64,000 nt of DNA from the NCBI GenBank assembly GCA_043228905.1, contig JBHGNT010000009.1, positions 7,378,001-7,442,000 on the forward strand, in the 5' to 3' direction. The notes beneath the pieces were generated by a model. The model was not told the DNA's origin. It did no database searches and saw nothing but the letters and a program-made list of their open reading frames with translations. The DNA is from Azolla caroliniana (lineage: Eukaryota; Plantae; Polypodiophyta). Shown piece by piece: positions 19,185 through 54,103 of the stretch. The position numbers were made by a program, and so were the translations under genes. The stretch's first letter is position 1. Each line of letters opens with the position of its first letter.

Positions 19185-19565
19185 CTCCTCATCGGGTCTT
19201 CACCATCCGGCTCTCCGTAGCCGGGTACTACTCATCCGGTTCTCACCGGGTCTGCACCATCCGGCTCTCCGTAGCCGGATGCTCCTCATCCGGTTCTCAC
19301 CAGGTCTGCACCATCTGGCTCTCCGTAGCCGGGTACTCCTCATCCGGTTCTCACCGGGTCTACACCATCCGGCTCTCCGTAGTCGGGTACTCCTCATCCG
19401 GTTCTCACCGGGTCTGCATCATCCGGCTCTCCGTAGCCGGATGCTCCTCATCCGGTTCTCACCGGGTCTGCATCATCCGGCTCTCCGTAGCCGGGTGCTC
19501 CTCATCCGGTTCTCACCGGGTCTGCACCATCCGGCTCTCCATAGCCGGGTACTCCTCATCCGGTT
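19185..19565. repeat. 54-bp CCGG-rich tandem repeat, 7 copies, in the 5' LTR
   Basis: Same unit; seen as seven copies of (F/S)SPGLHHPALRSRVLLIR in ORF 19102-19713. Confidence 0.9.
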
Positions 19566-21941
19566 TGCTCATCAGCACTGTTCTTCTCCCTTCACATCTA
19601 GAGGGACCTGTCTCCCAACAACAGTGACATCATCCCCGCTCCTACGCTGTCTTCCCAAACCAATCTCTGGTTTGTGGGGATACCGGAGATTGAAAATCTT
19701 GGACCACCTCTAGAGCAATTTGTAAAATCTTCGTTGGTTCCCATGTGGCGTCAGAAAGGGGGTAACCCCTCTAGAAGACGAGGTATTGTAGGTGTCGACG
19801 GTGCAAACGTGAGTCAAATATTTGGTCGACCTCGTATTCCTCCCCTATCGTCAACTGCACAGGTGGTGGGGGGGTTGAAGGAGAGAGACATCAAAAACAT
19901 CATGAATCCGGAAGTGGGATAGAAGGGTCAGTCAGAAGGCGACAGGATTGATGCGCTCAACTATACGAGATGGTCTAAACTTCTTGTAATCTAGTTTTGC
20001 ACATGGATGGGTGGTAGAGATGTGCCATCGTAACAACCAGACCATGTTGCCGAAGACAAAGGGTAGAGTGGAAGAACGACGGCGATCAACATGCTTCTTG
20101 TATCGTTTGCTAGCGAGACTAAGCTCTAAGGATAAGTCATGATGTAACTCTTCTAAAATGTAGGCGCAACCCTCTGCCGAAGGGTTCACAAAAGTGGTAG
20201 GGAGGGAAATGTTGAACTGAGGATGTAAACCATAGTTCGTAAAGAAGTGAGTGATGCCAGTCCATAGAGATAGAGGCCAAAGGACGACTAGGGCATGGAA
20301 GTGCTTGGAGTAAACCGTATGGACGATGATGAGCAGCTTTGGAGCAAGCGTAAACCTCACAAGTCTTGATGTAGTCTTTGACCAACTTCCATGGTTGTGG
20401 TCACCAGTACATCTGAGAGATTAGTTCGAGAGTTTTTGCAACCTCAAAATGACCCCCAAGGGGGTCATCGTGACATTCTTCAACACTCGGTTGCGACACA
20501 GGCCCTTCGGGACCTATAAGAGATGATCTGAGAATAGCAAACCATCTTGTATGGTGAAATGGTCAAGGTCCGTCCGTTTGGGTGTCGTGAAGGGGTTTCA
20601 TAGACTATCTTGAATCTTGTTGGCGAATGCATTGTCGTGGATGCATCGATGATCTATTGGAGTAACGAATCATCTTGTAGCATACAAGTGACAAAAAGAT
20701 GCAAATGGATGGGTTTTAACAAACAACAAGATTGTTGGGCATGAGAAACATCCACAGGGCGGATAACAAGTTCAGCTCGACGAGAAAGGACATCAGCCTT
20801 CCCATGTTGGCCACCAAGTCGAAATACGATCTCAAAATCATAGTCAGCGAGAAATGTCGACCAATGGGCATGCATTCGATTCAAAGTATGAGTGGTGGAA
20901 AAATAAACTAAATTCTTATGATCAGTTACTACCTGGACATGATGTTGTGCGCCTGCCGAGTAGGGGCGCCATTCTTCAAAGGCAGCAATGATAGCAACAA
21001 GCTCCTTGTCGTATATTGGATAATTGATTTCGGACTCCATGAATTTGTGGGAGTAGTAAGCCATTGGGTGCATTATGTTGGTGTCCTCGGCCTAGGATAA
21101 GATGGCGCCAATTGCGAAGTTAGAGGCATCGGTTTCGACTTGGAAGGGTCTTGTGGGGTCGACATGTAGAAGCGCAGGGGCAATGATGAATGCGTGTTTG
21201 AGTGAGTCAAATGCATTTTGTGCCGCCGAGGTCCATGAAAAAGGAGAACCTTTGTGTCCATGAAAACCCCTTGATGAAGCGACGGTAAAAATTTGTGAAG
21301 CCAAGGAAGGATTGCATATCTTTAAGTCAACTTGGAGTCGTCCAGTTCTGAATGACTGAGACCTTCTTCGTATCCATCATGATGCCAGTGGGCGAGATGA
21401 TGTAGCCCAAGAATTCAATCGAGGTACGGTCGAACTCACATTTCTCACTTTTGGCATAAAGGTCGTGCTCTCGAAGTTTAAGAAGAACTAATTGGACTTG
21501 GTGGGTGTGCTCCACCATGTTTAGCGAAAAAATGAGAATATCATCAAGGTAGATGACCACGAAATGATCAAGATATTCTCGGAACATATCGTTCATCATA
21601 TGTTAAAAAAAAGTTGGGGCGTTAGTAAGGCTGAAAGGCATTACCTTGTATTCGAAATGCACATACCGTGTTCGGAATACGGTTTTCCATTTATCACCAT
21701 GCGTAAAAGGCCCCATCCAACTCGGCCTTCTCTAGAGGATGTGAAATTGAATTGACCTTCATTGTTGTGCGCGAACATCCTGGATCGCTAAATGTGATTG
21801 AGCGACTGCACCAATCCACTATGGGATTGTGCGCCTCCAACCACGATAGTCCTAAGATGATCAGATCCTGGGAGCTCCTCGTGGTGGGAGTCCACACGAA
21901 GCCCTAATGGGATTGTAGTTTGGGTAATTGCTCCTGATGAG

Positions 21942-31112: not shown

Positions 31113-33875
31113 TGACAGGAACTCAACGCTCCTTAAGCACAACGCTCGGCCACAACCGAGCTTAGAATCATACACAGAAAACAGGAAACGGAAAAACACG
31201 ACACAAAGGAGAGAAAAGGTGCACAGGATGTTTACGTGGAAAACCCAAACTAAGGGAAAAACCACGGCAGCCCACAGGTTGCAAACTATCACTATGTTGG
31301 AATGTACAAACAGTGAGTTCACGGAGGCAACGACCTCGTGCTCACGATCTTCGCCACAGGCGGCGGTTACAACAGAGGCAGCGACCTCTTTCTCTAGATG
31401 CTCGGGTGGCCTATCCGATTGTTTCACTAGCACCATTGGTGTAAAACAGGGTTGCCCCCTATCACCGACTCTTTTTGGGATCTACATTGATGAGATCACT
31501 GATTTTATTGTTCGTAAGGGAGGCAAGGGAGTAGCTATTGGGGAGACGCAAGTTAGTCTCTTACTCTACGCAGACGACATTGTCTTGCTCTCAGAGTCGG
31601 AACACGACCTACAAAAGCATCTTAATGCCCTGGATGACTTTTGTACACAACGAGGACTGGTAGTGAATTTAGCGAAAACTAAAGTCCTTATCTTTCACAC
31701 ATCGTCCCGAGTTAGGAGTCAATGTCACCTAATCCTCTCTCAAAAACCAGTTGAGGTAGTGGGATCGTATGTATACTTGGGAGTCACCTTTAGTGCTCGC
31801 TCAGGTAAATTCTCGATGACCCAGGCAGCCAAAGATAGGCTAACGAGAGGGTATGCATCCCTCTCACTCTTAGAGAGACAATGCCATCAGGCATACTTTC
31901 AAGAGCCACGGACTAAGGGATGGCTTTTTGACTCATTAGTGACCCCGTCCCTCATGTATGCATCAGTAGTATGGGCTCCAGGTTTACCATCTTTCATGTG
32001 GACGCAATTAGAGAGACCTTTAGTGACGATGTTATCACGTCAACTCCGAAGCAAATCGACAGTACCACATGACATTATTAGAGCTTAGTTCAGTCTACCC
32101 CCGATGTTAGTAGAAGCACTCTTTCAAGTGGTAGTTTTTATTCATCGAATACATAGCCAACCACAAGATAGGATATCCCGTCGAGCCTTTGAGGCGTCTC
32201 GATCTTTATATGTGTCTGGCGACACTAGCTCTTGGTATAGCATCGTGGTGAGTTGGCTCCGTGCGAACGGCATAGACATTAATAACCTACCTCCCCTTAA
32301 GTACAACCATGGGACTGATCAAACTTTAATCTCTCACGAAGATCATAATAAAGTGATACGCCAAGAAATATGGCAAATTTACACTCGATACAAATGGATC
32401 ACCCCACGAGAACCACTCCCATCTAAAATGGTGTACTATAAGGAACACTTCTTGCGCTTCTCTACGCTAGGCTTTATTACACGACCAAGATATTTAGATA
32501 CATTCTTATCAAATGCACTAAGGGTGGCCATTGGACAACTTAGGATATCATCTCACCAACTTGAGATTGAGAATGGTCAGGCTAATAGAGTCCCTAGAGA
32601 GGAAAGGTTATGTAGGTTATGCCACATAGAGATAGAGGATGAGTATCACTTCACATGCAAATGCCCAACTTATGCCGAGATACGAGCGGAATACCAAGAC
32701 ATACTAGGACCCTCTCCCACCCTCTCCAAACTATTAGATACCCCGAATGTAAAGAGACTAGGTAGATATATCTTAGACCTAAAACAACATAGGGAGAATA
32801 AATTACAAAGTGCTAACGATAACCCTCTTAGTATTCATCACCATGTAACTAGTGTAATTTTTCAGGAACAAGGGGAGACGATGAATGTGGATACACTTAC
32901 GCCGCTCGGCCTCTCCCTTGAGGAAGCAGAAATGCAAAGAACAACGAAACGCCCTCGAATGTTGGGCTTCAAAACAAGTCAACGTGGAGTAGACAAGATT
33001 AAGAAGATAAGGGAACGTGAGCTACGTCGACTAGAAGCTATGGTTGGGGTACCTCTTACATGGGGACCACGGGCCACATCCACATCGCAACCCTTTGACC
33101 TTCCGCTTCTCTTCGAGAGACTTGGATGGAAATGAAAATAACAATTGTATAACACCATTTTCATTGTAGTAGAACATGTTTCTATATAAAACATGTTTGT
33201 TATTTTTTAGAACTATTTAGCTTAAACTCTATTTTTCATCTTATTTTTATTTTTACTTCGATGAATGGGTAAATATCCCATTTTTGTTGTAAACCATTTG
33301 TCTCATGGGCCAATTTTGGCCTTAGAAGACGTTAATATATCTTTCTTTCTTTCTTTCTTTCTTTCTCTCTCTCTGTACACTGTTACGTGCTCTCTCTTCT
33401 TCTTGCACCAACAAGAAATGACAACTACAGTCTAAAAGTTTGCCCTAAGTCATATTTATACTAATATGACTTTTCGGCTATTTACAAATATAGCCATGAT
33501 GGGCTCTTAGAAACATATTTACGAATATGTCTCTTCATCCGGTGAGCACTTCTCACCGGGTCTGCACCATCCGGCTCTCCGTAGCCGGGTACTCCTCATC
33601 CGGTCTTCACCGGGTCTGCACCATCCGACTCTCCATAGTCGGGCACTCCTCATCCGGTCTTCACCAAGTCTGCACCATCCGGCTCTCCGTAGCCGGGTAC
33701 TCCTCATCCAGTCTTCACCGGGTCTACACCATCCGGCTCTCCGTACCCGGGTACTCCTCATCCAGTCTTCACCGGGTCTGCACCATCCGGCTCTCCGTAC
33801 CCGGGTACTCGTCATACAGTTTCCCATCAGCACTGTTCTTCTCTCTTCCCATCCGGAGGAACCTGTCTCCCAACA
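31113..33875 (-). mobile_element. Solo LTR of the copia 13852-19620 family, TSD GAAGC, interrupted by a LINE
   Basis: TGACAGGAACTC...TCCCAACA; GAAGC at 31108-31112 and 33876-33880; five copies of the 54-bp repeat at ~33545-33815. Confidence 0.92.
31396..33365 (+). mobile_element. 5'-truncated RTE-X-like LINE: RT C-terminal half, C-terminal CCHC-type motif, 3' UTR, (TTTC)n tail
   Basis: GVKQGCPLSPTLF, LLYADDIVL, YVYLGV; LRISSHQLEIENG...RLCRLC..IEDEYHF..KC. One in-frame stop at 32086-32088. Tail 33340-33365; candidate TSD TCTTTCTCT. Confidence 0.88.
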
Positions 33876-36018
33876 GAAGCTAGAATCGGGACAAAGCTCG
33901 ACTTCATCAAGGCAAGGAGGTGGAATGGTCTGAAGGTGTATGTGGTGTGATAGTATCGACCACCAAAAGAAAAACTGTCAAGAACATAGGGATTCTCTTA
34001 ATCATGATAAAATCTACTATCAAGATGGAAAGATTCACTCGACAAAGACTCAACAACCAATCCAGCTCAACTTCGGGAAAGGTGGAATGAGAAAGCTAAT
34101 GGAAGATGCTGAGAGAGAAACGACTCAAGCGATACAATCCGTGACAACCTTAGGGTTGCGTGTAGAAGACTCATATGGTGGATCTCGTTTTTGGCAAGGT
34201 GTGATGGAGTATGCAAGAAAAGGGAAGGTTCCAGTGAAGGAATTAAAAAGCGCGGGTGATGAAATACGGAACTTCACTGGATGGAATGATCTAGTAGACA
34301 CACTATCAGCATTTGCCCAAGTGAATGTACAAGATGCACTAGTGGAAGAGAAGCGAAAGAGAGCTGAGGAGGCTGATTCGACAAAGAAACATGAGACAGA
34401 AAAACAACTTCAGAGAAGAGAGATGGAAAAGGATGCTCTTGAGTCAAAAGAAGCTAATAAAGTCAAAGGGAAGACAGACCCAACTTTTAAGCTTGCTTCA
34501 GACACAGAAGCCACGACGGATATAAAACATGTCATGGAAGAAGTTACGAGAGAATGTGCAGCAACAAGTCTCCAAGATTTGGATCATGAATCCATCAATA
34601 TTGTAGGTGTAAAGAAGATAAATGATGTTGGGATTCATGAAGGGGATAGGAGTCAACAACGGAGGTGCCATTGCGGAGCAACAAATTCCTTGTATTTCTT
34701 TGATAGATCATGGATCAGAAATTAACATGATGTCGTCGGAATGTTGTGCTCAAGGAAGGTGGCCAATCGATAAGAATCATGGGTCGAAGAAAAGAGTTAC
34801 AACAGAGATGACGGAGGATCTATTCGGAGCATGTCCCAGTGTGAAAGCAACAATGGGAGATGTGTCGGTGGATGAAAATTACTATGTGCAAGATGGATCA
34901 ACCTACCCTGTCATCCTTGGTCAACCATACATCAACGTAGTGAGTATGGAAACAAAGGATGGTGAACCATACATCAACGTAGTAAGGATGGAAACAACTA
35001 TGATTAGTGATGATTCAACTACGAGGATCAAGAGTCAGGATGGAAGGAAGAGGGGCCATATCTTAACCATGACGCCTAACCATGAAAGAAACAAAGAATG
35101 CTTGAGGGGACATCCAGTTCAGAAACAGAATGAAGAGTTTTTCCAAGACTTTGGATGAACTTTGCACTACTAGTGTGCAAGTTCAGAGGGGGTGGGTGTC
35201 GTGAAGGATTTGCTTCACGATATAAAAATAAACTTGAATATTGTATTAAGTAACATTTGAGAGACTTGAACCCGTAACCTCACACACCAAGGATGAAGCA
35301 TATACCATTAAGATAAGTTATTTTCTATAGTTATATTTTTATCACCATACTTATGACATGTGTATCTTCATACATTAGAGCTTAGATGAGCATGATGGCT
35401 ATCATGCATCACATGTAAAGCATGTGCGCCAAATGGCAATCATGCATCACATGCATGCCATGCACCCCCATATCATCATATGCATGAGAGAACCTATAAA
35501 GAGAGGCAAGGAATTAAGGGATGAATCAAGGGAAAACAGGGTAATGGATCAATCAAGAGATAGTGAGAAAATAATACAATTAAGTAAAGAAAATTAGCGC
35601 ATTGGGTGGAGAACCTCTTGTTTCGAAGTTGAGGTCGTGGGTTCAAATTAAGGGTCGGTATTGAAAAGATTCATCTTGCGATCGAGGATTGTAAAGTTGG
35701 TAAAATATTATATTTTTAATATACATCATGTTTATATCATATACTCTTGTTCCTTGAATCATACTTTGTCTCAATCTTCTTTCTAGAATCATACTTTTTC
35801 TCAATCTTCTTTCTTGAAGCATACATTGTCTCTATCTTTTATCTATGCTCATCTCTCTCTCTCGCACACGCACACACATTACTCGTAACTCTTCTTCTTA
35901 CTATCCTTAACCACTCTATTATCACCATACAAGCCTTATTAAAAGTTAAGTTTCTTCAACTCCCCTTAACCTTAGTCCCCGCGACTTCGCCGCACGAACC
36001 ACAACTACCCCGACAACG

Positions 36019-38451: not shown

Positions 38452-41400
38452 ACGTTATGTGGGTTGGATGCTCGATTTCGGCATTCTTTACAAATTGAGC
38501 ACTTTGATTCAACTCGAAGGATATACGAATGCCGATTGGGCAGGTTATAAAGCAAACAAACGATCGAAGACTGGGTTCGTATTCACACTCGGCAACGGAG
38601 CTATTACGTGGAGTAGTAAGAAGTAGCTGACAATCGCATTGTCGAGCATAGAGGCCAAATACAGGGGCGTAGCCATTGCTGCATGCGAAGCTATTTGGCT
38701 CAACGGTATCACACTCGGTAGTGGAGTTATTGCGTGGAGTAGTAAGAAGTAGCCAACAGTCGCACTGTCGAGCACAAAGGCCGAATACAAGGGCACAGTC
38801 GTTGCTGCATGTGAAATTGTTTGGCTCAAAGGAATCATGAAGGATCTAGGCGTTCCCATCAAGGGTCTGATTCGCCTTTATTGCGATAACATAAGGAGCA
38901 TCCACTTGGCCCGCAACCTAGTTTTCCATGCTCAAGCACATTGAAGTGCACTACCGTTGTATCCGAGGACATGTCTTGGCTGGAGATATCGCTTACAGTA
39001 TATTAGCACATATCTGCAAACAGCCGACATCTTCACGAAAGCCCTGGGCATTGACAAGTTGCGGCAGTTTGTCACGAACCTCAGTCTCTCGATCATCGAC
39101 CATCCATGCTTGAGGGGGAGTATGACAGAGTAGAACGATCATGATTAACCGACCAGTCAACAGAAGCCAATTCAGCCGAGCCGAAATAATCCGAAAACTA
39201 AAAGCCAAAGTCAACTCGACCAAATCGAAGACCAAACTAAACCAACTTTCGGCATGTTGAGAATCAAACTCAACTTCCCTAATGTGCAAACACACCCTGG
39301 TGTGTGAACACCCAACCACCTACTATAGTAACTAGTGTGTCCTAGAATCTTATAGTTCTATGACACATATTCAGTGTAGTTAAGTCTCCACTAGCGTCGT
39401 CCCGCCTTGCTCGCGCTCCTCGTCTGGTCCGGTTCCACTTCCCACGACCCGTCCGGTACTGCGCACCTCGACCTCCTTGTTCGGCTTGTCTGCTCAACAG
39501 GCCCATTTCAGCTCCTTCGATGTTATGACTCTGGTGTTTGTCGATCCATCAGTTCCTCCATGTCGGTGTCAACTTCCGCTGCCTCCTCGTCCAGTTGGCC
39601 TTTAGTTGATCCGGCTTCTCCGATTCGTTCTAGCTCTCGTCTGAGTTGGTAGTCTCCAACTCATCTTCCATTTTTAGGCCCTTCACCACATCAAACCACG
39701 TTCGGGTCTTCGCCTTCTTTCGGTCAGCTTTGTCCTTCTTGACTCTGCCACCGCTAACGCTTTCTCCAACTTGTTCGGATGTGCCGACTCCTTCGGTCGA
39801 CTCAACTCCCTTTTTCTACTCTTCCCCCCCTTGGTTCTTTCTTCCTCTCCGGCTCCTTGTCCAGTGCCATCACCAGTGCCTTTGCCCGTTCCTGTTCTCC
39901 CCCTCAAGTGCGGCACGTCGAGATGTTGTACACCAAGCATTTCGGTGAAGTGTTGCAACTTGTCTGATCCGAGCGGTTTGATGAAGATGTCGGCCGGCAA
40001 CTTGCCGATCCGTCTGAACATACCGAAGTTCGACTTCACCACTCAAAACCCGCTCACACACAAAGTGATAGTGGACTTCTATGTGCTTCGTCCAAGCATG
40101 GAACACAGGGTTCTTGGCGAGCTGAATGATGTCCATGTTGTCACAGTAGATCAGGATAGGGGTCAGTACCTCAATCCACAGGTCTTGCAGCAGTCGCTGA
40201 AGCCAGATGGCTTCACATGTGGCAATGGTAGCACCCCGGTATTTTGCCTTAGTGCTCGACAGAGCCACTGTTGGCTGCTTTTTGCTGCTCCACGCAACAA
40301 CCGCACTACTAAGAGAAAACATGTAACCGGAGGTGGATCGGCGATCCAATGCATCACCAACCCTGTCGGCATCTATGTATCCAACTAGCTCTTTAGTTAT
40401 ACCATGTCGGTATAACAGTCCCCGGTCCTTCGTGCCGCTCAAATACCGCAATATTCAATGCACGCACTGAAGGTGCTCCACAGTTGCTTTCTGCATGAAT
40501 TGGTTGATCACACCGACCGGATAACTGATTTCAGGTCGGGTGATTGTCAAGTATATCAAACTTTCGACTATTTTTCGGAACCGTTTCTCATTGCAAGCCG
40601 GTTCGGAGTTGGGACGGAGCTTCTAGTTCCGGTCCTGGGGTGTGGAGACAGGTCGACATTCCGTCATGCGAACTTCTACAGCATATTCAACACATAGTGT
40701 CGTTGTGAGAGAAATATGCCGTCGGGGGTTCGGATCACCTCGATCCCAAGGAAATAATGAAAGTCCCCCAGGTCCTTCATCTAAAATGTGTTCGACAGCT
40801 GGGCCTTGACACAACCGATTTCATTGAGTCCGGGTCCGGTGATGACTAAATCATCTACATAAAGTAAGATGCAAACCAAACCATCCGGACCTTGCCGGAT
40901 GAACAAAGATGAATCGGATTTAGAAGTCACAAACCCATCTTACGCAACCGGTGTGTGATCTTCGCATTCCAAGCTCGAGGGGCTTGTTTCAGACCGTAAA
41001 GTGACTTCTTAAGCCAGCACACCGCCAACTTGTTCATCTCAGACTGAAAACCAGGAGGTTGGATCATATAGACCCATTCTTCAAGGTCACCTTGAAGAAA
41101 CACATTCTTCATGTCCATCTAGTGAAGATGCCACCCCCTTGCCGCAGAAACCGTTAGTACCACTCGAACCGTCGTCATCTTCGCTATCGGAGCGAAGGTC
41201 TCATCATAGTCGATTCCGTGGGTCTGTGCGAATCCCTTCGCCACTAACTGAACCTTGTACCGGTAAACCAAACCATCGCCATTGTACTTTACCTTGTATA
41301 CCCATTTGCAACCGATCAGTTTACAGTGTCGAGGAGGGTCAACGAGGTCCCATGTGTCGTTGGCATCGAGTGCCCGTATTTCTTCCTCCATAGTAGCACA

Positions 41401-44400
41401 CCAATTTGCGTCTTTCGCTACTTCTACGTAGCTCTCCGGCTTACGCACTTCCACCACTTTGGTCATGTTCGCATAGTGATGCGTCATGTACTCATTGTAC
41501 TCGTACCGTGTAACGGGGTTCTTCTAGTGGGAAGACCGGTGTAACTTGTCATCACCCGGTTTGGGGCCCTTCTTGGCCGTTCGGAATTCATTCCCGAAGA
41601 TCCGCATTCATCCTTTCCGGAGTCGGATTCGCTCCGATCCAACTCAACGTTGCCAGTTTCGTATTCCGGCATCTTCTTCTTCCCATTCTCTTTGCGCGTG
41701 AACCGTCTCCACAGTTCCTTGCGCGGGGAGAGCATGGCAGAGTCTCCACTACTCGCCAGTTCCTCATCCGATTGGTCACTTTGACCTAGTCACTCATTCA
41801 GTCCGCTCAACCGAAACGATTCCGGACTCTCTTCTAGAGTCTCAAGCTCGTCATCTTCTATCTAGACCTCCTCATGCTCACTGGCCTCATCTTCCGGAAT
41901 CGGGCCTTCTTCGGGAGTTGGAGTTAGTAACGAGTACCATGATGTCATCTCAACAAACTCGACATCTCGGCTTACTCGGACCTGCCTAGTCTGGGGGTTA
42001 TAGCACTTATACCCCTTTTGCTCATGGGAGTAACCGACTAGGATGAACTTCCCTGATTTCGGATCCAGCTTCCTCCGCTTCTCATCCGGTACATGCATAT
42101 ATGCTATGCTACTGAATATCCGAAGGTGCCTCAAATTCGGCTACCGTCCGAAATACAGCTCATGTGCTAACACCTTCTCCCCGATCCGGTTTTGAATGTA
42201 GACGGTCGTCCGAACTGCCTCAACCCTGTAGAAGTGGGGCATGCGCTTCTCCTCCAACATTTCCCTTGCCACGTCAACAATCGATCGGTTCTTTCTCTCA
42301 GCCACACCGTTTTGCTCTGGTGTGGATCGGCAATTGAATTCTCTCCGAATTCTATTTTGCTACAGATAACTATTGAATTGGCCAGAAAAGTATTCTTTTC
42401 CGCCATCCGACTACGGGCACTTGATCTTCCTCTCTGTTTCCCATTCAACTATGCTTTGCAATTTCCGGAAACATTCGAAGACTTCGCTCTTCCGTTCAAT
42501 GAGGTAGATCCACGTGTGCCGGTTGTAGTCATCGATGAAGGAGACGAAATACCAACTCCCGCCAAGACTAACGTTCTGTGCCGGTCCCCATACATCCAAG
42601 TGGATTAAGTCAAGCTTCTTACAGCTCTGGTTTCGTTCGGTGGGGAATGGAAGCCAGTGTTGCTTCCTGAGTTGGCAGGCCTCACAAATTTTGGCCTTCC
42701 GGCCGCTAAATTTCGGCAAACCGAAAACAACTTGTTTCGATTGCAGGTCTTGAAGCCTCTGGTAGTTGACGTAGTCGATCCACTTGTGTCATAGGTCGAT
42801 GTCCGACTCGACCTTCTACCCTTTCTCAAACATAGCGGTGCCGACGTCATTAGTGTTGAGGATGAACATCCTCCTGTCTCTACGCCCTTGCGCAATTATC
42901 CGGCCTTCTTCCTCGATGAAGGACCCGAGGTGCGTAAACTGCACCTACATTCCCTGGTCAACGATTTGTCCAACTAACACTAGGTTCTTTGTGATTGTCA
43001 GAACGTGTAGTACGTTCATCAACCTCTCCTTTTGTCCAGCATGGCTTAAAGGGACTTCTCTGACATGCACAATCGGGTGAGGGGTGTCATCTCCGGTTTC
43101 GACAATCCCCGGTTGTTCCGGTTTCTCCAAAAAAGAGAACCACTCTTCATGGCTCGTCATGTGGTTGGACGCTCCGGAATCAACGTACCATACTTCCTCC
43201 GATTTGGAAGTAGTCTTCTTCATCGAGTTAGCCTTGTGCTTCATCACGAAGGTTGGCCCTTTACCGGTCTTCCTGGTTCCGGATCCTTCCGATCCTTCCG
43301 CGTAGTGTGAGCTTTGCCGGTTTTCCCCACCGGTTTTGCCGGATCCGGATTTGTCCGAATCAACGCGCTTCTTCCAGCACTCCCTTTCCTTGTGGCCTTT
43401 CTTGCCACAATACCAGCATTCTGTGTTGGCCTTTCCTTGCCGGTTCCCGGCGCCCCTTTGACTCCCCCTTCTTGTGGAGGGTCCGGAATTGTTGTCGGCA
43501 TTGTCTCTGTGCCTTCTGTCCTGCTCTTCCCAGCCGCCTCCATTGCATGCCAACCCACCTCGTACTCGACGCCCACGGGGCCAATCCAACCCCATGTACA
43601 GGATCCGGCTGTCTGATTGAGTGTTCCTCAACCTGCTCACGTGGTTTTCTTCAACCATCAACATTGATTGTAAGTCGAAGAAGGACGGTGGCTTCTCCCG
43701 GGTGCAGATCGTCATCCGGATTGGCCCATACCGTTGTGCTAGACCACCGAGGCAGATTTGGACCATCTCGTCTTCGTCCACCATCACGTTGATGGACCCA
43801 AGTGCGTCACAAATCTCCTTTATTTTGGTGGTGTAATCCGTAACCGAAATGTCTCTTTGCCAGATGTTGTTCAGCTCTTGCCGGAGCTACAACTTACGGG
43901 TTGTGGTACTCGCAACAAAAATCTTCCTCAGATTTACCCAGGCCTCCTTTGGTATTTTTGCATCCTTTATGTAGCTGAGCATCTGGTCGTGCACACAAGA
44001 CACGAGGAAGTACAATACTCGGCTCACTCCTTGCTCCCATACAGGGAATTCCTCATGTGCCCTCTCCAGCACTACCTCGTTCCTTCCTTCCACGAAGCTC
44101 CAATATCCATACCCCAACAAGTACTAGTGCATCTTATATGACCAGGACGCGTAGTTGCTCCGGTCGAACTTCTTTGTTGGAAGTGAACTCGCCATTCCTC
44201 TGTCCATATCTTCTCTTTGTTTGTTGTTACCGGGTTCTAGGGTTCGTCTACGAAAGCAAGTGTCGGCTACAGAGGTTCTCAACCCTCGCGCTCTGATACC
44301 ATGTGAATGTTAAGGTGCGGAAGTGTTAGACAAAACCGGCTCAGCCGGATAGCAACAGAGAATAAGATGAAGGTTTAATGGAGAAGCTTAATACACAAAG

Positions 44401-44919
44401 AGTATAGGTGTGGGAGAGACAGAGAGAGCAGAACATAAAGTTAGATTCAAAATAATAAAAACACTCTGTAACTCTGTACATAGAATGTGCTCAACAACAC
44501 TATTTATACAAGTCCTCAAAAGGACTAACAGAAGTACTATGTACTTCAATGCTCATACGAGTGACTAACACTAACTACGAGACAATGATTACCTAGTAGT
44601 CTAGGCTACTACTAGGCTTCCGGTTCCCGCTCGAATCCGGCTCTCCGATCCATCTCACCGATACGGCTGGTTGTATCCGGATACCAATCCGGCTCCCCGA
44701 TCTGGCTCTGGCTTATTCAGCCGATCCGGATCCGGTTGAGCTTGCTCGCTCAACAACACCTTCCCAACTTATTTGTAATGTTGGTCATTCTTGTATTCCT
44801 TTTTGATAATATAGTCTTTACTTGTTTTCTATATACTTGAGCTCTCTCTCTCTCTCTCACGCGCGCGCACACACACACATATCTCTTCTATTGCACATAA
44901 TCACTCTTGGTTCTTTACA
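38452..44919 (+). mobile_element. Copia 3' remnant: RNase H 38456-39110 (with a ~125-bp internal duplication); LTR 39255-44919 split by copia 39392-44755
   Basis: LEGYTNADWAG...WSSKK (twice), KHIEVHY, TGAGGGGGAG. LTR halves 39255-39391 and 44756-44919 match LTR 53820-54184. Confidence 0.75.
39392..44755 (-). mobile_element. Ty1/copia element lacking its 3' LTR: 5' LTR 44302-44755, iMet PBS 44290-44301, decayed gag-PR-INT-RT-RH ~44200-39900
   Basis: CWYCGKKGHKEREC, WYVDSGASNHMT, LIHLDVWGP, YDETFAP, YIDAD...RRSTSGY; GCTCTGATACCA. Confidence 0.9.
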
Positions 44920-45849
44920 AGAATATTGAAGGATCTGGGCATTCCCATCAAGGATCCGATCCTCCTGTATTGTGACAACATGAGTAGCATTCATCTGGCT
45001 CAGAACCCTATCTTTCACCCTCGAACTAAGCACATCGAGGTGCACTATCATTTCGTCCGAGAGTGTGTTTTAGCCAAAGATATCGACTTACAACACATCA
45101 CCACGAATCTGCAAACATCTGACATCTTCACAAATACCCTAGTGTTACCGATTAGGAACACGGTATGCGGTCAATCCTTCGACCTAGACCTCCCAAGTGG
45201 TTGTGGAACAACGAATAGGCGTCTATGCGTAATGCGTAGGGGAATGTTCCCTGTAACCTATCAGCGTATAAGGGAGACAGCCACAACCGACTCCTTAGCA
45301 ATGGTTACACTTACGTTCTTACACGCTCAGGTATTCCAGACATATAGTAGATTAGCCGCAGCTATACACAGACTTTCAGAGAAGATAGAATTCTATTATG
45401 ATACGTTCCTTTACATTCCAAAATTACACGCCCCCTCTATCAGAGGTTTTCTGCCCTTTATATACGCATGGTCTATTTAGTCGTTCACGCTTCCTGCGTG
45501 AACCGTTACATGCGTTATGATCTTATATTATTTCTTATTCCTACGCTCTTGTCCGTCGGTTACTATTCCGGCGGACAACACGTGGCACGCCTGTGGGACA
45601 GTGCCCTGGCACGTTGGACCCATCCTGTTAATCTTCTTCCAAAATGGTCCAGATGTTTGGCTCTGTTGCAGTGTCCGTGGTCGGAGGCGACGTAGGGCCC
45701 GTAGGTGCATCGTGGTGGGGCTCCCCTGTTTGGTCGGAATGGTTTCTCCCGGTGTCGCAGTCGTCGTGTGTGGTCGGTCCGGGTATGGTGGGCTCTTCTT
45801 GAGCTAGTGAGTTGGGCTCCATTGTCGTCGTGCTTGCGGTCGGTCGCGG

Positions 45850-48445
45850 CTCTTCGTCGCTCTTCGTCGTTTGTGTCAGGGCGCGCTCGATCATCTGGCG
45901 CTCTGCGTGTTCCTCGGCCATTCGTTGGGAGGCTTTTATCTGTTGTGTTGCTAGGAATTCCATGATCTCAAAAGAGGTTCCGAATTGTAAGAGGGCGTTG
46001 AACTCATGGGCCGTATCCAGGATATCTTGATATGCCAACACCTCGCTTTCCGCCGTCAATACGGCTTTCCCTCGTTGGGACTGGGTCGTAATGATCGGTC
46101 GTGGCTCCCGGATGATTTCGAAGGTGGTATTGTGCTCCGTAGCTGTGGAGCCATCACCGCCAGTCGTTGTTTCTGCCGTCGTGGGGACGTCTTTGACCAA
46201 TCCCCGCCCATCTTTCCTGTCCAATCTACGCCGTTTTGGTCTGGGGCTATCCTGCCATGTTTCAGTGTCGGGCTCTAGGGTTGTTGCCACGGAACGTGTC
46301 GGCTGTTCCTCATGCATTGTTCGTGTGTCTGGTTGGGCGGGAGGTGTTGTCCGCGTGTCTGGTTGGGCGGGTTGGGGTTCCTCTTCCCACTCTAGGGCCG
46401 CTAACTCTGCTAACCTGCGTTTCGCGGATCGGGGCGGGGGCGTGGGTTGGCTGGGCTATGGTGTCGGTAGGCCTCAGGGTGGGAATAGTACCGTAAGGTA
46501 CTGTTATATGATCGGCCTGAGCTTTTTTCCTGCCTGATACGCATGCATGCCTTCCCATAACGCCAGCCCTATGATGACCCCCTAGTCGACCGCACGTCCT
46601 TCAAAGGTATCGATAATTATGCCCGCCTTCTGCTTGGGCATCCCATATGCGTTGACATGTATGCAGCCGACCTCTAACAGGAACTTGGCAACTTGATGGA
46701 AGAAGGGATCCGGGATCTGCTTCGTTCTATAATCCTTGGCGGAGGAGGAGTATGGCCCGAAATATCGCTGCAGCACCTCTGCAAGAGGGATTTCAAAATA
46801 CCTTTCGCCTAGCGATGATAGGTCCAACTTTTTCCGGATGGAAGAGTTGGTGACTGTGTCGATGTTCAGTTTCCTGGCGATGTCCATGGCATCCGGGTGT
46901 GGGGGTGCCTCTGCGACCCGGATGTACCCGTCCAGGCGTTTCTCCACGAGCCATCGGCGTAAGGCAGTGGAGATGAAGATCGGCATCGCCAGAGTAGGTT
47001 CGTGGGAAGGAGACTGGTGGTTGCGGTGGGCTGGAGCTCTGTGATAGGATGGAGGAGCGATGGAAGCGCTGATAATTAGAAGGTGGGTTTCTGTTTTGTG
47101 CAGAAGATCTTCTATTTCCTTCTTTTTGTGGCTTAGGGTTCATTGGTCCTCATCATCGCTCTTCGTCGTTTGTGTCAGGGCGCGCTCGATCATCTGGCGC
47201 TCTGCGTGTTCCTCGGCCATTCGTTGGGAGGCTTTTATCTGTTGTGTTGCTAGGAATTCCATGATCTCAAAAGAGGTTCCGAATTGTAAGAGGGCGTTGA
47301 ACTCATGGGCCGTATCCAGGATATCTTGATATGCCAACACCTCGCTTTCCGCCGTCAATACGGCTTTCCCTCGTTGGGACTGGGTCGTAATGATCGGTCG
47401 TGGCTCCCGGATGATTTCGAAGGTGGTATTGTGCTCCGTAGCTGTGGAGCCATCATCGCCAGTCGTTGTTTCTGCCGTCGTGGGGACGTCTTTGACCAAT
47501 CCCCGCCCATCTTTCCTGTCCAATCTACGCCGTTTTGGTCTGGGGCTATCCTGCCATGTTTCAGTGTCGGGCTCTAGGGTTGTTGCCACGGAACGTGTCG
47601 GCTGTTCCTCATGCATTGTTCGTGTGTCTGGTTGGGCGGGAGGTGTTGTCCGCGTGTCTGGTTGGGCGGGTTGGGGTTCCTCTTCCCACTCTAGGGCCGC
47701 TAACTCTGCTAACCTGCGTTTCGCGGATCGGGGCGGGGGCGTGGGTTGGCTGGGCTATGGTGTCGGTAGGCCTCAGGGTGGGAATAGTACCGTAAGGTAC
47801 TGTTATATGATCGGCCTGAGCTTTTTTCCTGCCTGATACGCATGCATGCCTTCCCATAACGCCAGCCCTATGATGACCCCCTAGTCGACCGCACGTCCTT
47901 CAAAGGTATCGATAATTATGCCCGCCTTCTGCTTGGGCATCCCATATGCGTTGACATGTATGCAGCCGACCTCTAACAGGAACTTGGCAACTTGATGGAA
48001 GAAGGGATCCGGGATCTGCTTCGTTCTATAATCCTTGGCGGAGGAGGAGTATGGCCCGAAATATCGCTGCAGCACCTCTGCAAGAGGGATTTCAAAATAC
48101 CTTTCGCCTAGCGATGATAGGTCCAACTTTTTCCGGATGGAAGAGTTGGTGACTGTGTCGATGTTCAGTTTCCTGGCGATGTCCATGGCATCCGGGTGTG
48201 GGGGTGCCTCTGCGACCCGGATGTACCCGTCCAGGCGTTTCTCCACGAGCCATCGGCGTAAGGCAGTGGAGATGAAGATCGGCATCGCCAGAGTAGGTTC
48301 GTGGGAAGGAGACTGGTGGTTGCGGTGGGCTGGAGCTCTGTGATAGGATGGAGGAGCGATGGAAGCGCTGATAATTAGAAGGTGGGTTTCTGTTTTGTGC
48401 AGAAGATCTTCTATTTCCTTCTTTTTGTGGCTTAGGGTTCATTGG
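45850..48445. repeat. 1299-bp tandem duplication of the extra-ORF region
   Basis: ORFs recur with an exact +1299 offset (e.g. 46582/47881, 46736/48035); copies are nearly identical. Confidence 0.95.
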
Positions 48446-48621
48446 GCGGTGAGCCATAGTGATGCCGCATGTTCTTGAACTAGGAGTCTATGCATGCATT
48501 TAGTCCTTTTAATAGTCGTTATCTTCTCTTTTTTCCTTTTTTCTTTTTTTTTTCTTTTTTTTTTTTCGTAATGGTTATATACAACCTATTTTTACATTAT
48601 GGTACAAGTGGGGTTGCCCAT

Positions 48622-51500
48622 TTACGCCGCGGGTTCTCCAGCTTTGTCATGTTTGGCGGTGAATGGGTTAGGTGGCGTAGAGCCCAGGTAAGGTTTAAGG
48701 CGAAAGCCATTCACCTTTTGCCGTACTACTTCCCCGGCCAACGTACCTAGTTGGAAGGTGCCTTGTTCCGCTCCAATTATCCAGTATGGGCCAGTCCAGC
48801 GGAAGCGTAACTTCCCTGGCATATGGCCCATGCGGGTTTGGAAAACCAGCACCGCCCGACCAACGGCGAACTCCTTTTCTCTTGCGTTCCGATGTCGATC
48901 CACAAACGCTTTACGTCGTCGTTGTTCCTCTCCAACACAGCCATGATGCTGTGTACGCATTTTTCCCCGAGTTTAAGTAGCTGGTGGAGCCGTACCTCCT
49001 CCGACTTGGCTTCCGATAGTCGGTCCCATACCTGAATTCACAAACTAGGTACCTGAAATTCGATCGGCATCACAGCCTCCAGCCCAAACGGTGTTGACTG
49101 TATGCTTGTTTTGTAGCTAGTTCTGTACGCCCATAATGCACTCTGTAATTTGGTATCCCAGTCTGTTCTATTTTCATTGACGATTTTCTTCAAGATGGTC
49201 TGCAATGTCTTGTTGGTGGATTCCGCTAACCCATTCGCCTGTGGATAATATGGCGTACTCTTTTTATGGACTACGGCGTAATGATGTGTTAGTTCCCGAA
49301 CCATCGTATTGAGAAAGTAACTCCCCTGGTCACTGATGAGCTCAATTGGACAGCCGAACCGGCACCAGATGTGCTCATAAAGAAATCTGGCTGTGACGGT
49401 CGCCGTATTTTCACGTAGTGCCTTTGCTTCTACCCACTTGGTGCAATAATCCCTAGCTACCAATATGTATTTATTGCCCGTATGGGCTGCCGCCGGTGTG
49501 AAGGGGCCCACAAAATCCAATCCCCACTTTTGGAAGGGGTCTAGCAATAATACGAGCTGGTGTGACATCCTTGCGCCCTCCGCGGGCTGGCCCATCCGTT
49601 GACACAAATCACACTTTCTACAATACTCGGATGCGCCCTTTTGCGTTGTTGGCCACCATAAGCTCGCCTGCCATACTTTCCGGGCTGTAACATCGCCCAC
49701 GTAATGGCCACCTGTCATGCCGCAGTGCGCCTCCCATAAAACTGCTTCCTTCTCATCCTGACGTACCCCACGTCGCCAAATGTCGTCACTTCCTTTGTGA
49801 TATAAAACTCCTTCTACGAGGCAGAAGTGACGGCTTTGGACGGCTAGTTGTTTCTTCTCGTCCGTGTGTAATTGTGGTGGAGGCAGTCCCGTAGTCAAAA
49901 AGTACGTCATTTCCATAAGCCACCGGTTCGGAAAGGTCGATTCCGTTCTTTCTACTAGTGCTGCTACCCGCAGGATGTCAATGTCCGGAAAATCTTCGTC
50001 ATCTTTCTGTATTGTTTCTCCATTCTCGAGTCTGCTCAAAAAATCCGCCACTGCGTGTTGCGCCCCTAGTCGGTGCTGGATTACAAAATCGAATTCTTGG
50101 AGCAGCAGCATCCATCGCGCCAATTTCCCCGTCAAGGCTTGTTTCTCCACCAAATACAGCAACGCCGAATGATCCACGTGGAACGTGAATTTCCTCCCTA
50201 GTAAATAATGCCGGAATTTATTGATGTTATAGATCATCCCTAGCACCTCCGCTCCATTGTGGAATAGTTACGCTCTGCTGTTGATAATTTATGACTAGCG
50301 TAGTACACTGGCCGGTACCAGTTTGGTTCGGTGAGCTGCATTAGTGCACTTCCTATTGCTATGTCCAAGGCGTCGACGAACACATGGAATGGCTTCGCCT
50401 AAACTTGGGTTTGTACGATGGGGGCCTGTGTGAGCATTATCTGAAGTGCCTCATAGGCCTTATCCTCCGTTGCAGTCCATTGGAAAGGAGTCTGGTGTAC
50501 GGCAGCATGTAACAGTGTGGCAAAGTTCGCCAAATATCGTATCATCCAACTGTGCCACCGTATTTGTCCTAAAAACCGGTTGAGTGATTTAGCGTTTGTC
50601 GAAGTTTTGGCTTGCGTAATCGTGGAGATCTTGTTCGAATCGACCATTATTCCCTCCTTCCTGACTATATGGCCCATGAGAGTCCCGTTGGTCACGCCGA
50701 AAGCAGATTTCGCGGGATTCAGGCTTAAGCGTGCGGTGCAGCAACATTCCAGGCATAGTTGTAAGTGCATAAAATGGTCTATTGTTCTCCCATATACCGC
50801 AAAGTCGTCTAAAAAAACTTGCATGAACGTCGGAATGTATTCCCCAAAGATCTCCATAATTGTCCGTTGAAATGTTGCCGATGCCGTCTTTAGTTCGAAC
50901 ATCATGACAACTGCCACATAGACTCCCCAGTCCGTGACAAATTCCATCTTTTCTTGGTCATCGGGATGCATGCGTACCTGGTTATACCCACTGAAGCCAT
51001 CTAAAAAACTGTACATCGCATGTCCCGCGATGACGTCTAGTATTCTAACGGTGAAGGGTAAAGGAAATGCGTCTGTAATGGTTACGGCATTTAATTTTCG
51101 GTAATCTACGCATACCCGTATTTTGCCATTTTTCTTTGGAACGACCACTATCGGGCTTAACCATGTCGCTTGTTTAACTGGCCATATGAACCCCGCCTTC
51201 AAGAGCTTGTCAATCTCTTCTTTCACGCGGGTCGCGTAGTTCGGGTTCATGCGGTAGCGGTGCTACTGGACGGGTTTTGCGTCTGTTGCTAAATTGATCT
51301 TATGCTGATAGAACTTGGGATCTAACCCCTTCATGTCCTCGTGAGCCCAAGTGAACACATCTTTATATTTCGTGAGTAGTGCGATCATCGTGTTTCTCTG
51401 GTCCGGCCTTAATTCCTTTGCGATGGAGAGGAAACGGGGTTCCGACTCTGTACCCACATTTACTTCTTCTAGGGCGGAAGTGGTGACTCGTCGTGAAATC
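48622..51500 (-). pseudogene. Gypsy pol (RT-RNase H-integrase), interrupted
   Basis: ORFs 50399-51250 (RT), 49038-50246 (RH and INT) and 48622-48960 (WTGPY motif). Confidence 0.92.
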
Positions 51501-53230
51501 TCCATTTCCCTTTCGAATGCCACCCGTGCTCTGCTGAGTTCCATTATGGACTCTGGGTTTGGTTCGTAAGCCTCGTCGTGGAGAATAGTGGTCATGGCAT
51601 ATCCTGCCGCGGTTGCGATGACATCGATTTCGAACAGCTTGTCATCATATCTCGTCTTGCGCAGCCCAATCAATCGTTTTTGTTTGCTGGCGTGTCGTGA
51701 TTTGCTGCACTTCCGCCGTAATCGTATTGACGGCGGGCCCTTTTCCCTTGCGTGCTGGGCATTGCGTGGCATAATGTCCGGGCTGTTGACAAATAAAACA
51801 ATGTATGCTTGATTCACCCTTCTCGGCTCCTGGTGGTGTGTGCCGCTCCCCTGGTGCTACTTGCTCCTCGCAGTCCGGCCTTGTTTGTCAGAACGCACGC
51901 GGTGGTTGTTGTTGGTCCCGTCGTTGTTCCTGGTGTCGCTCATCTCTTGAGCTTTTGCATAACACCAGTGATCTCGATATTGTCGCGGCTTACCACGATA
52001 ACCATTGACGCCGCCCCATTTGTTTGTCGATCGGTGATTCTCATAGCGTCGGCCCCCTTTAGCATAACTCGGATGTCCACGATAATCCTCATCCTCTGGT
52101 TCGTCTTCCTCGGAGTCGTTGTGATTTCGGCGATTCTGGTGGTGTCGGTCATCCTGTGGGTTGTGATCCACATACCGTGGTTGGTCTTCTTGCCTCCTTT
52201 GTTTAGTCCGGCGTGGTGGACACTGGGTGTCCATGTTGCGAACTGCGGGAATGGCTCTGTTCAACATATTGTATTCGCATTGTTCGACTGTGTGAGCCTT
52301 CAAGTGGCAGATTGGGCAGTGGATTCGCATATTGCACTCCACTGCGGAATGCCCCGAGTTCAAGAAAATCGTGCATTGGATTGCTTGACGAAACTAGCGT
52401 TCCTCGTCCTGGGATAACGCTTGTTGTAAGGAGGACATAGAAAACCTTTCCTCCTCCTTGTCCAACTCGAGCTGTAATGCTCGTTCAATGACCATATCCG
52501 TCGTTTCCCCTTTCACAATATTGTTGTTGAGCGTTGCCCGGATGGGTCGGCGTAATGCTGCCAGGAATGTTTCTCGAGCCTCGTCCTCCACGGGGCTCCG
52601 TTCTAGTTTCCGCCGTAGATTTTGGAAACGTAAGCTGAAATCTGCGATCGTCTCGGTCGGCAGTTGCTTAATCATGTAGAACTGTCCGAGGATTTCGCGT
52701 TCTGGAACCCTCCGATGGAAGAACCGCAAGAAAGCGGACTGCAGCTGATCGAAGGTTGTGATTGCTGGTAAATCCATCTGTGAATGCCAAAATGTCGCTC
52801 GCCCATCCAATGTTAACCCGAACTCCGTCATTTTCGACTAGTGCGCTACCACCTCCGAAAGGCTCTGCGCCATGTGGTTCGCATTCCAGACATTAAGGAA
52901 CATGTGAATATGGGTTGCGGCGTCGGTTTCGCCGTTAAAGCGGGGGTAGGCAAAGGCCATGTTGGGGGCTATGGTGGGTCGGGAAAGACCACAAGGTGCC
53001 TATGGTGAGCGTACTCCCCGCGTCTCGTCGAGGTATTTGGAGAGCGAAGACTCACCTTTGTAATCACGGCAGATAGTACTGAGGTCGCTGAGGCGAGGCT
53101 TTTGCCATGCGCGTTCTTCTGCTTGGCGTGTGACGGACCTTGTGATTGGCCGGTCTTGTCGTGTTGGTTCTCTGGGGCGTCTACGGCTAAACATCCATTC
53201 GTCGTTGCTCGTCTGTGAGAAGACACAGAT

Positions 53231-53244
53231 CACTAAGCGTGCCA
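53231..53244 (-). promoter_or_regulatory. PBS, tRNA-Arg-like (TGGCACGCTTAGTG)
   Basis: Lies 4 nt inside the 5' LTR; resembles the TGGCACGCC(C/T) Arg-type PBS. Confidence 0.65.
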
Positions 53245-54103
53245 AAAGTGTTACTGATTAGGAACACAGTCTACGGTCAGTCCTTCGACCTAGACCTCCA
53301 AGTGGTTGTGGAACAACGAATAGGCGTCTATGCGTAATGCGTAGGGGAATGTTCCCTGTAACCTATCAACGTATAAGGGAGACAGCTACAACCGACTCCT
53401 TAGCAATGGTTACACTTACATTCTTACACGCTCATGTATTCCAGACATACAGTAGATTAGCCGTAGCTATACACAGACTTTCAGAGAAGATAGAATTCTA
53501 TTATGATACGTTCCTTTACATTCCAAAATTACATGCCCCCTCTATCAGAGGTTTTCTGGCCTTTATATATGCAGGGTCTATTTAGTCATTCACGCTTCCT
53601 GCGTGAACCGTTACATGCGTTATGATCTTATATTATTTCTTATTCCTACGCTCTTGTCCGTCGGTTACTATTCCGGCGGACAACACCTAGGAACCGACAA
53701 GTTGCGGCAATTCACGATGAACCTAGGTCTTTCTATTACCGACCAACCGAGCTTGAAGGCGACCTGAAGACCAGTCTGAACCAACTATTCGGCGACCAGC
53801 AATTGTGTTTGAAGGGGCGTGTGAGAATCAAACTCAACTTCCTAGTGTGGGAACATACCTTAGTATACTCAAGTGTGTGAACACGCCACCTCCTAGTATA
53901 TTAACTAGTGTGTAATAGAACTTTAAGGTTCTATGACACATATTTAGTAGATAGTTAAGTCTCCACCTCTCTTTCAAGTAGCAGTTGTAGTAAGAGAACA
54001 TGGAGATAAGCTGACTACATAAGTACCTTCTCCTCTTTCTAACTATTGGTTCATTCTTGTTCTTGTTAATACAGTTTCTTGTTTTCTATATACATTGTGT
54101 TCT

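Follow-up and report, generated by a model that had tools for sequence, protein, structure and literature searches.

We identified in the window, by which we mean the whole 64,000-nucleotide stretch of Azolla caroliniana DNA analysed here, a full-length, decayed Ty3/gypsy LTR retrotransposon in which the position of the polypurine tract (PPT) beside the 3′ LTR is occupied by an inverted tRNA-Arg(UCU)-type site. Judging from the sequence data set out below, we put at roughly 0.6 the probability that a second host tRNA-Arg(UCU) anneals to the minus-strand DNA at this cassette and primes the plus strand. Extended to the whole plant lineage, the proposal would be that both DNA strands are primed with host tRNAs, with no PPT and with a structured, DNA-level tRNA-binding site, some members (L008) using two different tRNAs, and this too we regard as probable. 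No description of a tRNA-primed plus strand replacing the PPT was found in the literature searched. The features of the element and its flanks are as follows.

45138..45142: target site duplication CCTAG, left copy
45143..53685, minus: Ty3/gypsy LTR retrotransposon, full-length, decayed, 8543 bp
45143..45580, minus: 3′ LTR, 438 bp, TG...CA ends
45464-45457, minus: TATATAAA (TATA) box in the 3′ LTR
45581..45582, minus: spacer between cassette and 3′ LTR, 2 nt
45583..45599, plus: box 1, TGGCACGCCTGTGGGAC, inverted tRNA site, 17 nt, at the PPT position
45601..45612: small hairpin between the boxes, its stem sequence different in all five families with pairing kept
45614..45623, plus: box 2, 10 nt, complementary to the T-loop and the 5′ strand of the T-stem of the tRNA
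45628..48438, minus: extra 3′ ORF region, broken, sense orientation
49038..50267, minus: C-terminal half of RNase H, and integrase (PF17917, PF17921, PF00665)
~50270-50400, minus: N-terminal half of RNase H, in another frame
50399..51262, minus: reverse transcriptase (PF00078)
51645-51887, minus: zinc knuckle, zf-CCHC (PF00098)
52394..52837, minus: gag fragment (PF03732)
53207..53228, minus: hairpin CTGTG...CACAG (53228-53213), then a CGRRC box, downstream of PBS1
53231..53244, minus: PBS1, TGGCACGCTTAGTG, tRNA-Arg(UCU)-type, 4 nt (53245-53248) from the 5′ LTR
53249..53685, minus: 5′ LTR, 437 bp
53686..53690: target site duplication CCTAG, right copy

Pfam matches to pol and the LTR TATA box place the element on the minus strand, as an earlier note on this DNA had proposed; the interval which that note gave for it, 45581-53248, proved to be the internal part, and alignment of the LTRs and target site duplications (TSDs) extends the element to 45143-53685. 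The two LTRs are identical at 421 of 438 alignment columns, while gag-pol is interrupted by stops and frameshifts throughout and the copy is dead. TATA boxes are restricted to the gag-pol (sense) strand in all five LTRs from the window and the in-clade families, none being found on the plus strand of the window LTR. The domain order gag-RT-RH-INT, obtained with Pfam for the window and L008, is that of Ty3/gypsy elements; Pfam returned no protease family match for the window or the L008 pol, and the catalytic D-E-D-D residues of RNase H are present in L002, L004 and L008. The extra 3′ ORF region is homologous to ORFs of 936-1170 aa in L029 and L007, showed no Pfam family above cut-off and only atlas matches below 0.9, and ends 4 nt short of box 2, leaving the cassette outside the ORF. 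It contains a 1290-bp tandem duplication (45857-47146 and 47156-48445) with a single difference, which may be an assembly artefact. The ordinary PBS was confirmed at 53244-53231, just inside the 5′ LTR, where it had previously been placed. The hairpin and CGRRC layout downstream of it recurs in L007 and L029, and the CGRRC box also in L008; this box is a weak candidate for a T-loop contact. The wobble changes in PBS1 would be explained if its sequence, as in Ty3, is not corrected against the tRNA.

A PPT before the 3′ LTR is usual in Ty3/gypsy elements without defining the superfamily. The lack of a purine tract noted previously at this position was borne out: the 20 nt preceding the window 3′ LTR hold 9 purines with a longest run of 3, and no PPT was found at the other end of the element either (12 purines, run 5). 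Box 1 is instead a copy of a tRNA-Arg(UCU)-type 3′ end, 17 nt long against the usual 18 with one base missing, and fits the tRNA better than PBS1 does. In tRNA numbering we take it to be complementary to positions 76-59, less one base, and box 2 presumably to positions 58-49. The site was originally delimited as 45583-45599, which corresponds to box 1, but it runs on through the hairpin and the T-arm box to 45623. Likewise the claimed match to an Arg tRNA 2 nt from the 3′ LTR stands at 17 of 17 positions against a phage tRNA-Arg(UCU), provided that one base is deleted.

This phage tRNA (L120, 3′ 18-mer) served as a proxy for the host tRNA, and five short contigs in the host runs, possibly not tRNA genes, match its last 28-29 nt with one or two differences; run X15 gave no coverage of the proxy, a result to which we attach no weight. 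No tRNA gene was found in the window or in the 32 of 80 related loci scanned. When all 17-mers ending in CCA, from either strand of the window, were compared with the proxy, box 1 alone matched at 17/17 (one deletion) and the next best reached 13/17. The 8-mer by itself is weak, with three occurrences in the window against 0.77 expected and three reached in 6 of 100 shuffles; the third TGGCACGC, at 24119-24126, is not associated with an LTR. Rfam gave nothing meaningful at 45100-46000. A protein scan of viral contigs returned no relative, and matches to the cassette pattern in viral (2) and prokaryote (37) contigs, none of them near RT or integrase, were taken as chance.

All four related families with contigs reaching the junction, whose integrases are 65-88 % identical and whose LTRs are mostly unalignable (8 of the 10 LTR pairs among the five families gave no blastn match), carry the cassette with the 2-nt spacing and with differing hairpin stems. 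Thus in all five in-clade junctions seen, window included, the cassette lies exactly 2 nt from TGTTG, and the second spacer base is always G on the element strand. Box 1 matches the proxy at 16-17 of 17 positions in these families, with one deletion. The in-clade junctions hold 9-10 purines of 20 with a run of 3; all five outgroups with a defined 3′ LTR start hold 13-17, with runs of 5-11. An ordinary PPT in other intact copies, or a motif that fits no host tRNA and lacks conservation, had been named in advance as counting against the idea; the relatives keep the inverted site, and purine tracts appeared only in outgroups. A fuzzy rescan for junctions in 80 loci and the window (701 kb) recovered five cassette sites plus three chance matches with no LTR start after them (L001, L006, L063). 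A quick integrase-core tree was built with midpoint rooting and without REXdb references, L008 and L065 being excluded since neither covers 140 residues in a single piece. It places the window in a separate clade of 19 rows (SH-aLRT 99) that does not include the loci with an Asp PBS.

The family is high-copy in four DNA runs, which carry two organism labels. In these runs no variant within 45583-45599 appears among the best-supported 40 of 149 rows, and the window differs from 73-80 % of the depth at 45582, from 54-66 % at 45606 in the hairpin and from 91-97 % at 45615 in box 2. Relative to the proxy the families show six distinct substitutions, four of which are compatible with G.T/G.U pairing by the antisense strand, a weak signal, and L029 carries a non-wobble change in box 2. 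Changes in both partners of a hairpin pair occur only twice, a level that shuffles reach as well (251/500). As minus-strand DNA the cassette is predicted to adopt the same fold with a free toehold in all four relatives, and as sense RNA the full equivalent fold in two of the four. On neither strand do the folding energies improve on those of shuffled sequence (z -0.4 to -1.1; +1.0 for the RNA of the window copy), and a strong cofold of cassette and tRNA follows by construction, the sense strand being a tRNA copy.

The locus L008, one collapsed contig of low coverage in which the cassette sits upstream of gag, separates the two tRNA sites. Its PBS1 is of the TGGCGACC type, a different tRNA end, for which 59 viral matches comprise 26 Arg(UCU), 12 other tRNAs and 21 uncalled; its cassette is still of the Arg(UCU) type (-26.5 kcal/mol with such an end), and it ends in CTA rather than CCA, so that the penultimate base of the tRNA would be mispaired. 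Because the PBS1 of L008 has changed and its cassette still fits an Arg(UCU)-type end, the cassette appears to track a tRNA and not its own PBS.

If a second tRNA does prime the plus strand, as the earlier note first suggested, minus-strand synthesis would begin from PBS1 as usual and, after the first jump, RNase H would clear the RNA upstream of U3. The minus-strand DNA could then form a stem-loop with a single-stranded toehold, namely the 10-12 nt that can pair with the acceptor end of the tRNA; the CCA end of the tRNA would invade there, with one base bulging at the acceptor/T-stem junction. Exchange of the T-stem strands with the DNA stem would produce a three-way junction in which 26-27 of the last 28 nt of the tRNA are paired. 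The 3′-OH of the CCA would lie two bases from the TG of the LTR, yielding the usual 2-nt extension trimmed by integrase, and the primer would be removed by RNase H like the first one. RNase H also attacks tRNA annealed to DNA, and the primer must therefore stay uncut until priming; our guess is that the bulge protects it.

The main rival, which was also raised in the earlier note and which we judge unlikely, is self-priming from the RNA of the element: an RNase H tuned to the CCA end of a tRNA would cut behind the CCA of the cassette in the genomic RNA, and the structured fragment would remain on the minus strand as an atypical, non-purine PPT. Position and polarity are those of a PPT, the 2-nt spacing fits equally well, and an invasion step by an RNA primer becomes unnecessary; moreover PPTs are described as having no common consensus and as not necessarily all purine (PMC3185511), and in L029, L065 and, in part, L008 the sense RNA is predicted to fold into a T-stem-like hairpin that leaves the CCA tail free. 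A fragment on its own DNA copy would however need no tRNA identity over 27 nt, and in L008 the minus-strand primer has moved to another tRNA end with the cassette unchanged. Two G-to-A changes (window, L065) break T-stem pairs in the sense RNA and are tolerated as G.T on DNA, and the sense fold is less uniform among families than the DNA fold.

It seems improbable that the cassette serves in circularisation or dimerisation through RNA-RNA pairing with PBS1, which would join the two ends, the plus strand being primed by another, unrecognised fragment. In the window, L007 and L029, pairing between the sense cassette and PBS1 does extend to 9-10 of the first 10 nt (-12.7 to -17.0 kcal/mol), and end-to-end bridging is known for Ty3 (PMC5371799). 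This option, raised in the earlier note, is weakened by L008, in which the PBS switched without the cassette and the two are not complementary (cofold gain -5.4 kcal/mol); it would also account for neither the lack of a PPT nor the constant 2-nt spacing, and such a signal would compete with the real primer. Were antisense RNA, or RNA of either strand, the template for replication, 45583 would mark an ordinary PBS, in accord with the canonical 2-nt spacing and with the better tRNA match of box 1 than of PBS1; we consider this more improbable still, given that TATA boxes occur on the gag-pol strand only and that the 3′ end of an antisense template would again have no PPT, and its second strand would need tRNA priming at PBS1, which mirrors our preferred explanation. 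There is hardly any case for a functionless site arising by chance, as a relic of a single aberrant tRNA capture or as an assembly artefact: the copy is dead and the internal duplication may be artefactual, but the cassette is conserved in four other families from independent assemblies, with LTRs diverged beyond alignment, and the high-copy family carries it in four runs.

If tRNA priming of both strands is correct, this PPT-less, high-copy lineage would be evidence that RTs of the LTR type are able to extend a tRNA annealed to DNA, and that their RNase H can first spare and later remove such a primer. It would offer a natural case of PPT-independent replication, making testable what plus-strand primers must look like, and annotation software that depends on a PPT would overlook such elements or assign them the wrong orientation. 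A tRNA-shaped self-primer would be new as well.

Among known systems, the HIV-1 primer activation signal, the tRNA-like motif in HIV-1 U3-R and Tf1 self-priming involve extra T-arm contacts or element-encoded primers; all act in minus-strand priming or transfer, with a PPT retained. Self-priming is mentioned in PMC6317226. A second tRNA site has reportedly been seen in Drosophila micropia; the text of PMC6797199 offered no passage on PBS, PPT or tRNA. Helenus TRIMs similarly contain tRNA-derived sequence within an LTR element, but inside the LTR as a Pol III promoter, with normal PBS and PPT (PMC10886601).

Within plant gypsy lineages, Athila shares the 5-bp TSD, the extra 3′ ORF and the absence of a detected archaeal RNase H or chromodomain, and has a 5′ LTR-PBS gap of 3-6 nt, against 4-7 nt here; it differs in its tRNA-Asp/Asn PBS and conserved PPT junction (97 %) (PMC6317226; bioRxiv 10.64898/2026.03.20.713144). 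The Asp/Asn PBS of Athila was absent from the window element; loci with an Asp PBS lie on another branch of the quick tree, and L039 has a PPT. The 116-aa integrase tail (48622-48972) gave no Pfam match to a chromodomain. Tat/Ogre/Retand elements likewise have a tRNA-Arg PBS, a 5-bp TSD and extra ORFs, but are defined by an additional archaeal RNase H (PMC6317226); the window and the 1031-aa L008 pol, cut inside integrase, contain one RNase H only. Phygy/Selgy are also non-chromoviruses of seed-free plants lacking the archaeal RNase H, but with a 4-bp TSD, a tRNA-Trp or -Ala PBS and no extra ORFs (PMC6317226), none of which applies to the window element. Retroviruses and LTR retrotransposons are described as sharing plus-strand priming from a PPT (PMC5371799, PMC3185511). 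Yeast Ty3 shares the LTRs, the gag-RT-RH-INT order and a tRNA at a PBS after the 5′ LTR, and Ty1 and Ty3 make extended, bipartite tRNA contacts through the T arm, just as the cassette match reaches beyond 18 nt (PMC5371799). Compared with canonical Ty3/gypsy elements, the second site described here has the opposite polarity, includes the CCA end and takes the place of the PPT.

A full-length Ty3/gypsy element occupies the minus strand of the window, with the following features:

45143-53685, minus strand, full-length element with LTRs, target site duplication (TSD) and coding domains
45143-45580 and 53249-53685, minus strand, LTRs with TG...CA ends
53244-53231, minus strand, ordinary primer binding site (PBS1), 4 nt past the 5′ LTR

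The LTR pair is identical in 421 of 438 aligned columns and the flanking TSD is CCTAG. Within the LTR TATATAAA is found on the minus strand only, the strand which also carries gag, a zinc knuckle, reverse transcriptase (RT), RNase H and integrase, interrupted by stops and frameshifts. The absence of a purine tract before the 3′ LTR, recorded in an earlier note, holds (9 purines in 20 nt, longest run 3), and at the polypurine tract (PPT) position the opposite strand reads TGGCACGCCTGTGGGAC, starting at 45583, 2 nt from the LTR. Directly before the element lies a copia RNase H-like fragment (44815-45142), and several other copia remnants occur in the window, including 14651-18730 and 39870-43886. 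Related tandem repeat arrays occur at three window sites (13945-14859, 18991-19713 and 33519-33977), two of which flank the copia element at 14651-18730 and are probably positioned inside its LTRs.

The inverted tRNA-Arg-like site which the earlier note placed 2 nt from the 3′ LTR is present, but its extent had been drawn too small, a hairpin and a 10-nt box also belonging to it. In element strand order the resulting cassette consists of a 10-nt box resembling the 5′ T-stem strand and T-loop, a C, an 11-12 nt hairpin, a T, the 17-nt CCA-ended box, two bases and the LTR, an order which indicates a copy of the last 28 nt of a tRNA interrupted by a hairpin, the split falling between what we take to be tRNA positions 58 and 59. 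The hairpin stem sequence is different in each of five families; with the structure drawn from these same five sequences, 89 % of cells in the alignment are paired, 5 cells are changed on both sides (3/500 shuffles) and only 2 pairs are changed on both sides (251/500 shuffles). The layout of PBS1 loosely resembles that of the cassette, with a box, a hairpin and CGRRC in the window and the related loci L007 and L029, and partly in L008, the 5-nt CGRRC box being weak evidence.

The cassette is non-coding, since an additional 3′ ORF found clade-wide on the sense strand (window 45628-48438, L029:916-3723, L007:1381-4890, L065:1037-3976) ends before it. In this ORF the N-terminal domain and an acidic, ILDILEED-like C-terminus just before the cassette are conserved, and a KKRRL-like basic motif is present; the ORF matched no Pfam family, and the atlas clusters it points to, plant mobile domain and DUF1985 (0.82), are weak leads. 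In the window it contains a 1290-bp tandem duplication (45857-47146 and 47156-48445, 1 difference), in the place where L029 and L007 have ~400 more residues. The duplication either arose long after the LTR pair (96 %) or was introduced in assembly. On the window, run cover drops to near zero by 45856.

We used as reference tRNA end a phage gene called as tRNA-Arg(UCU) by ARAGORN (L120), which may differ from the host tRNA; the box at 45583 matches its 3′ end at 17/17 positions with one base deleted, and all other CCA-ended 17-mers on both strands of the 64 kb reach at most 13 matches. Five host-run contigs of 31-32 nt match the last 28-29 nt of L120 without gaps and with 1-2 differences, and so host DNA contains an uninterrupted sequence of tRNA-Arg(UCU)-end type. 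Aligned to L120:298-326, these 31-32-mers are multi-copy in runs X2-X4 and match through the CCA position; they could equally be tRNA genes, cassettes without interruption or long PBSs.

Contigs from four DNA runs, which represent no more than three samples under two organism labels (one possibly the window's source), were aligned to 45380-45860. The element family is high-copy in all four, depth not being equivalent to copy number, and cover is continuous from the LTR into the cassette. Among the 40 best-supported of 149 variant rows none falls within 45583-45599, and minor variants are possible among the other 109. The window copy differs from 73-80 % of run depth at 45582, from 54-66 % at 45606 and from 91-97 % at 45615.

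Relatives were taken from the best 80 of 478 metagenome stretches, fetched with the integrase alignment. The four in-clade loci long enough to reach the 3′ junction, the remainder being too short, all retain the 17-nt site exactly 2 nt before TGTTG, bearing out the conservation which the earlier note had asked about, and match the proxy at 16-17 of 17 positions:

L007:5009-5025, 17-nt site (integrase identity 77 %)
L029:3755-3771, 17-nt site (integrase identity 88 %)
L065:4011-4027, 17-nt site (integrase identity 81 %)
L008:439-455, 17-nt site (integrase identity 65 %, RT 74 %)

The LTRs of these families have diverged, 8 of 10 pairs giving no blastn hit. The inverted site is real, conserved and lineage-wide. 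In a quick integrase tree (midpoint-rooted, without reference lineages, L008 or L065) the window, L007 and L029 fall in a 19-row clade (SH-aLRT 99) separate from loci with an Athila-type Asp PBS and from Adiantum proteins. The closest proteins with a named source suggest a seed-free land plant as host. In five outgroup elements which have both LTRs the tract is purine-rich (13-17 purines in 20 nt, runs of 5-11), L063 being the weakest. L032, L063, L064 and L078 form a separate outgroup clade, possibly Phygy-like, with TGGCGACC/TGGTGACC-type PBSs and purine tracts, and have the PBS start in common with L008.

We propose, with a probability of about 0.62 and from sequence comparison, that a second tRNA starts the plus strand. 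Minus-strand transfer and RNase H clearance would come first, after which the DNA cassette would expose a toehold; tRNA-Arg would invade it with exchange of T-stem strands, so that its CCA came to lie 2 nt from U3, as 2-nt trimming by integrase requires. Such trimming is established for retroviral-type integrases. The spacing is fixed at 2 nt at the cassette versus 4-7 nt at PBS1, and the RNase H D-E-D-D residues are retained in relatives, so that PPT loss is not due to a dead RNase H. The antisense cassette and the last 28 nt of the proxy are predicted to cofold as a three-way junction with a gain of -25 to -33 kcal/mol (RNA parameters), a strength expected because the sense strand is a tRNA copy. 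The predicted minus-strand DNA fold is the same in 4/4 relatives, leaving the acceptor-complementary end free, and the predicted sense-RNA fold is complete in 2/4; the window copy is predicted to misfold on both strands, and folding energies were no better than those of shuffles on either strand. Of 6 distinct substitutions relative to the proxy, a small sample against a tRNA which is not the host's, 4 are wobble-tolerated on the antisense strand. The Ty3 PBS is not copied from the tRNA (section 2.2 of PMC5371799), and by analogy a Ty3-like route would allow PBS1 to drift through wobble changes.

The principal alternative, a self-primer made from the element's own RNA, we regard as unlikely. 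If it imitated the minus-strand primer it is weakened by L008, a single collapsed contig of low coverage, where PBS1 starts TGGCGACC at position 925 (L008:925-970, 7-nt gap to the LTR), the complement of another tRNA end than the cassette's, and the cassette retains its Arg(UCU)-type sequence. L008 is a candidate element in which each strand would be primed by a different tRNA. In place of CCA its cassette has a terminal CTA; if this is not a mutation, it speaks against either priming model. Circularisation by a tRNA-mimicking RNA pairing with the PBS, an alternative raised in the earlier note, is contradicted by the non-complementary L008, with -5.4 kcal/mol for PBS1-cassette pairing versus -12.7 to -17.0 kcal/mol elsewhere, and is improbable. 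Still less probable is replication from an antisense template. That so conserved a site has no function is the least credible reading.

The literature searched, in which subscription and older work is thinly covered, describes neither priming of the plus strand by a tRNA nor an inverted PBS replacing the PPT; the comparison drew on the available portions of PMC5371799, PMC3185511, PMC10886601 and bioRxiv 10.64898/2026.03.20.713144, and those of PMC6797199, PMC12789967 and the PMC5389709 supplement held no relevant match. The second-tRNA priming suggested by these sequences is possibly a new mechanism. The element itself is a Ty3/gypsy non-chromovirus which falls outside Athila, Tat, Phygy and Selgy as tabulated in the available parts of PMC6317226 and its supplement file 3.
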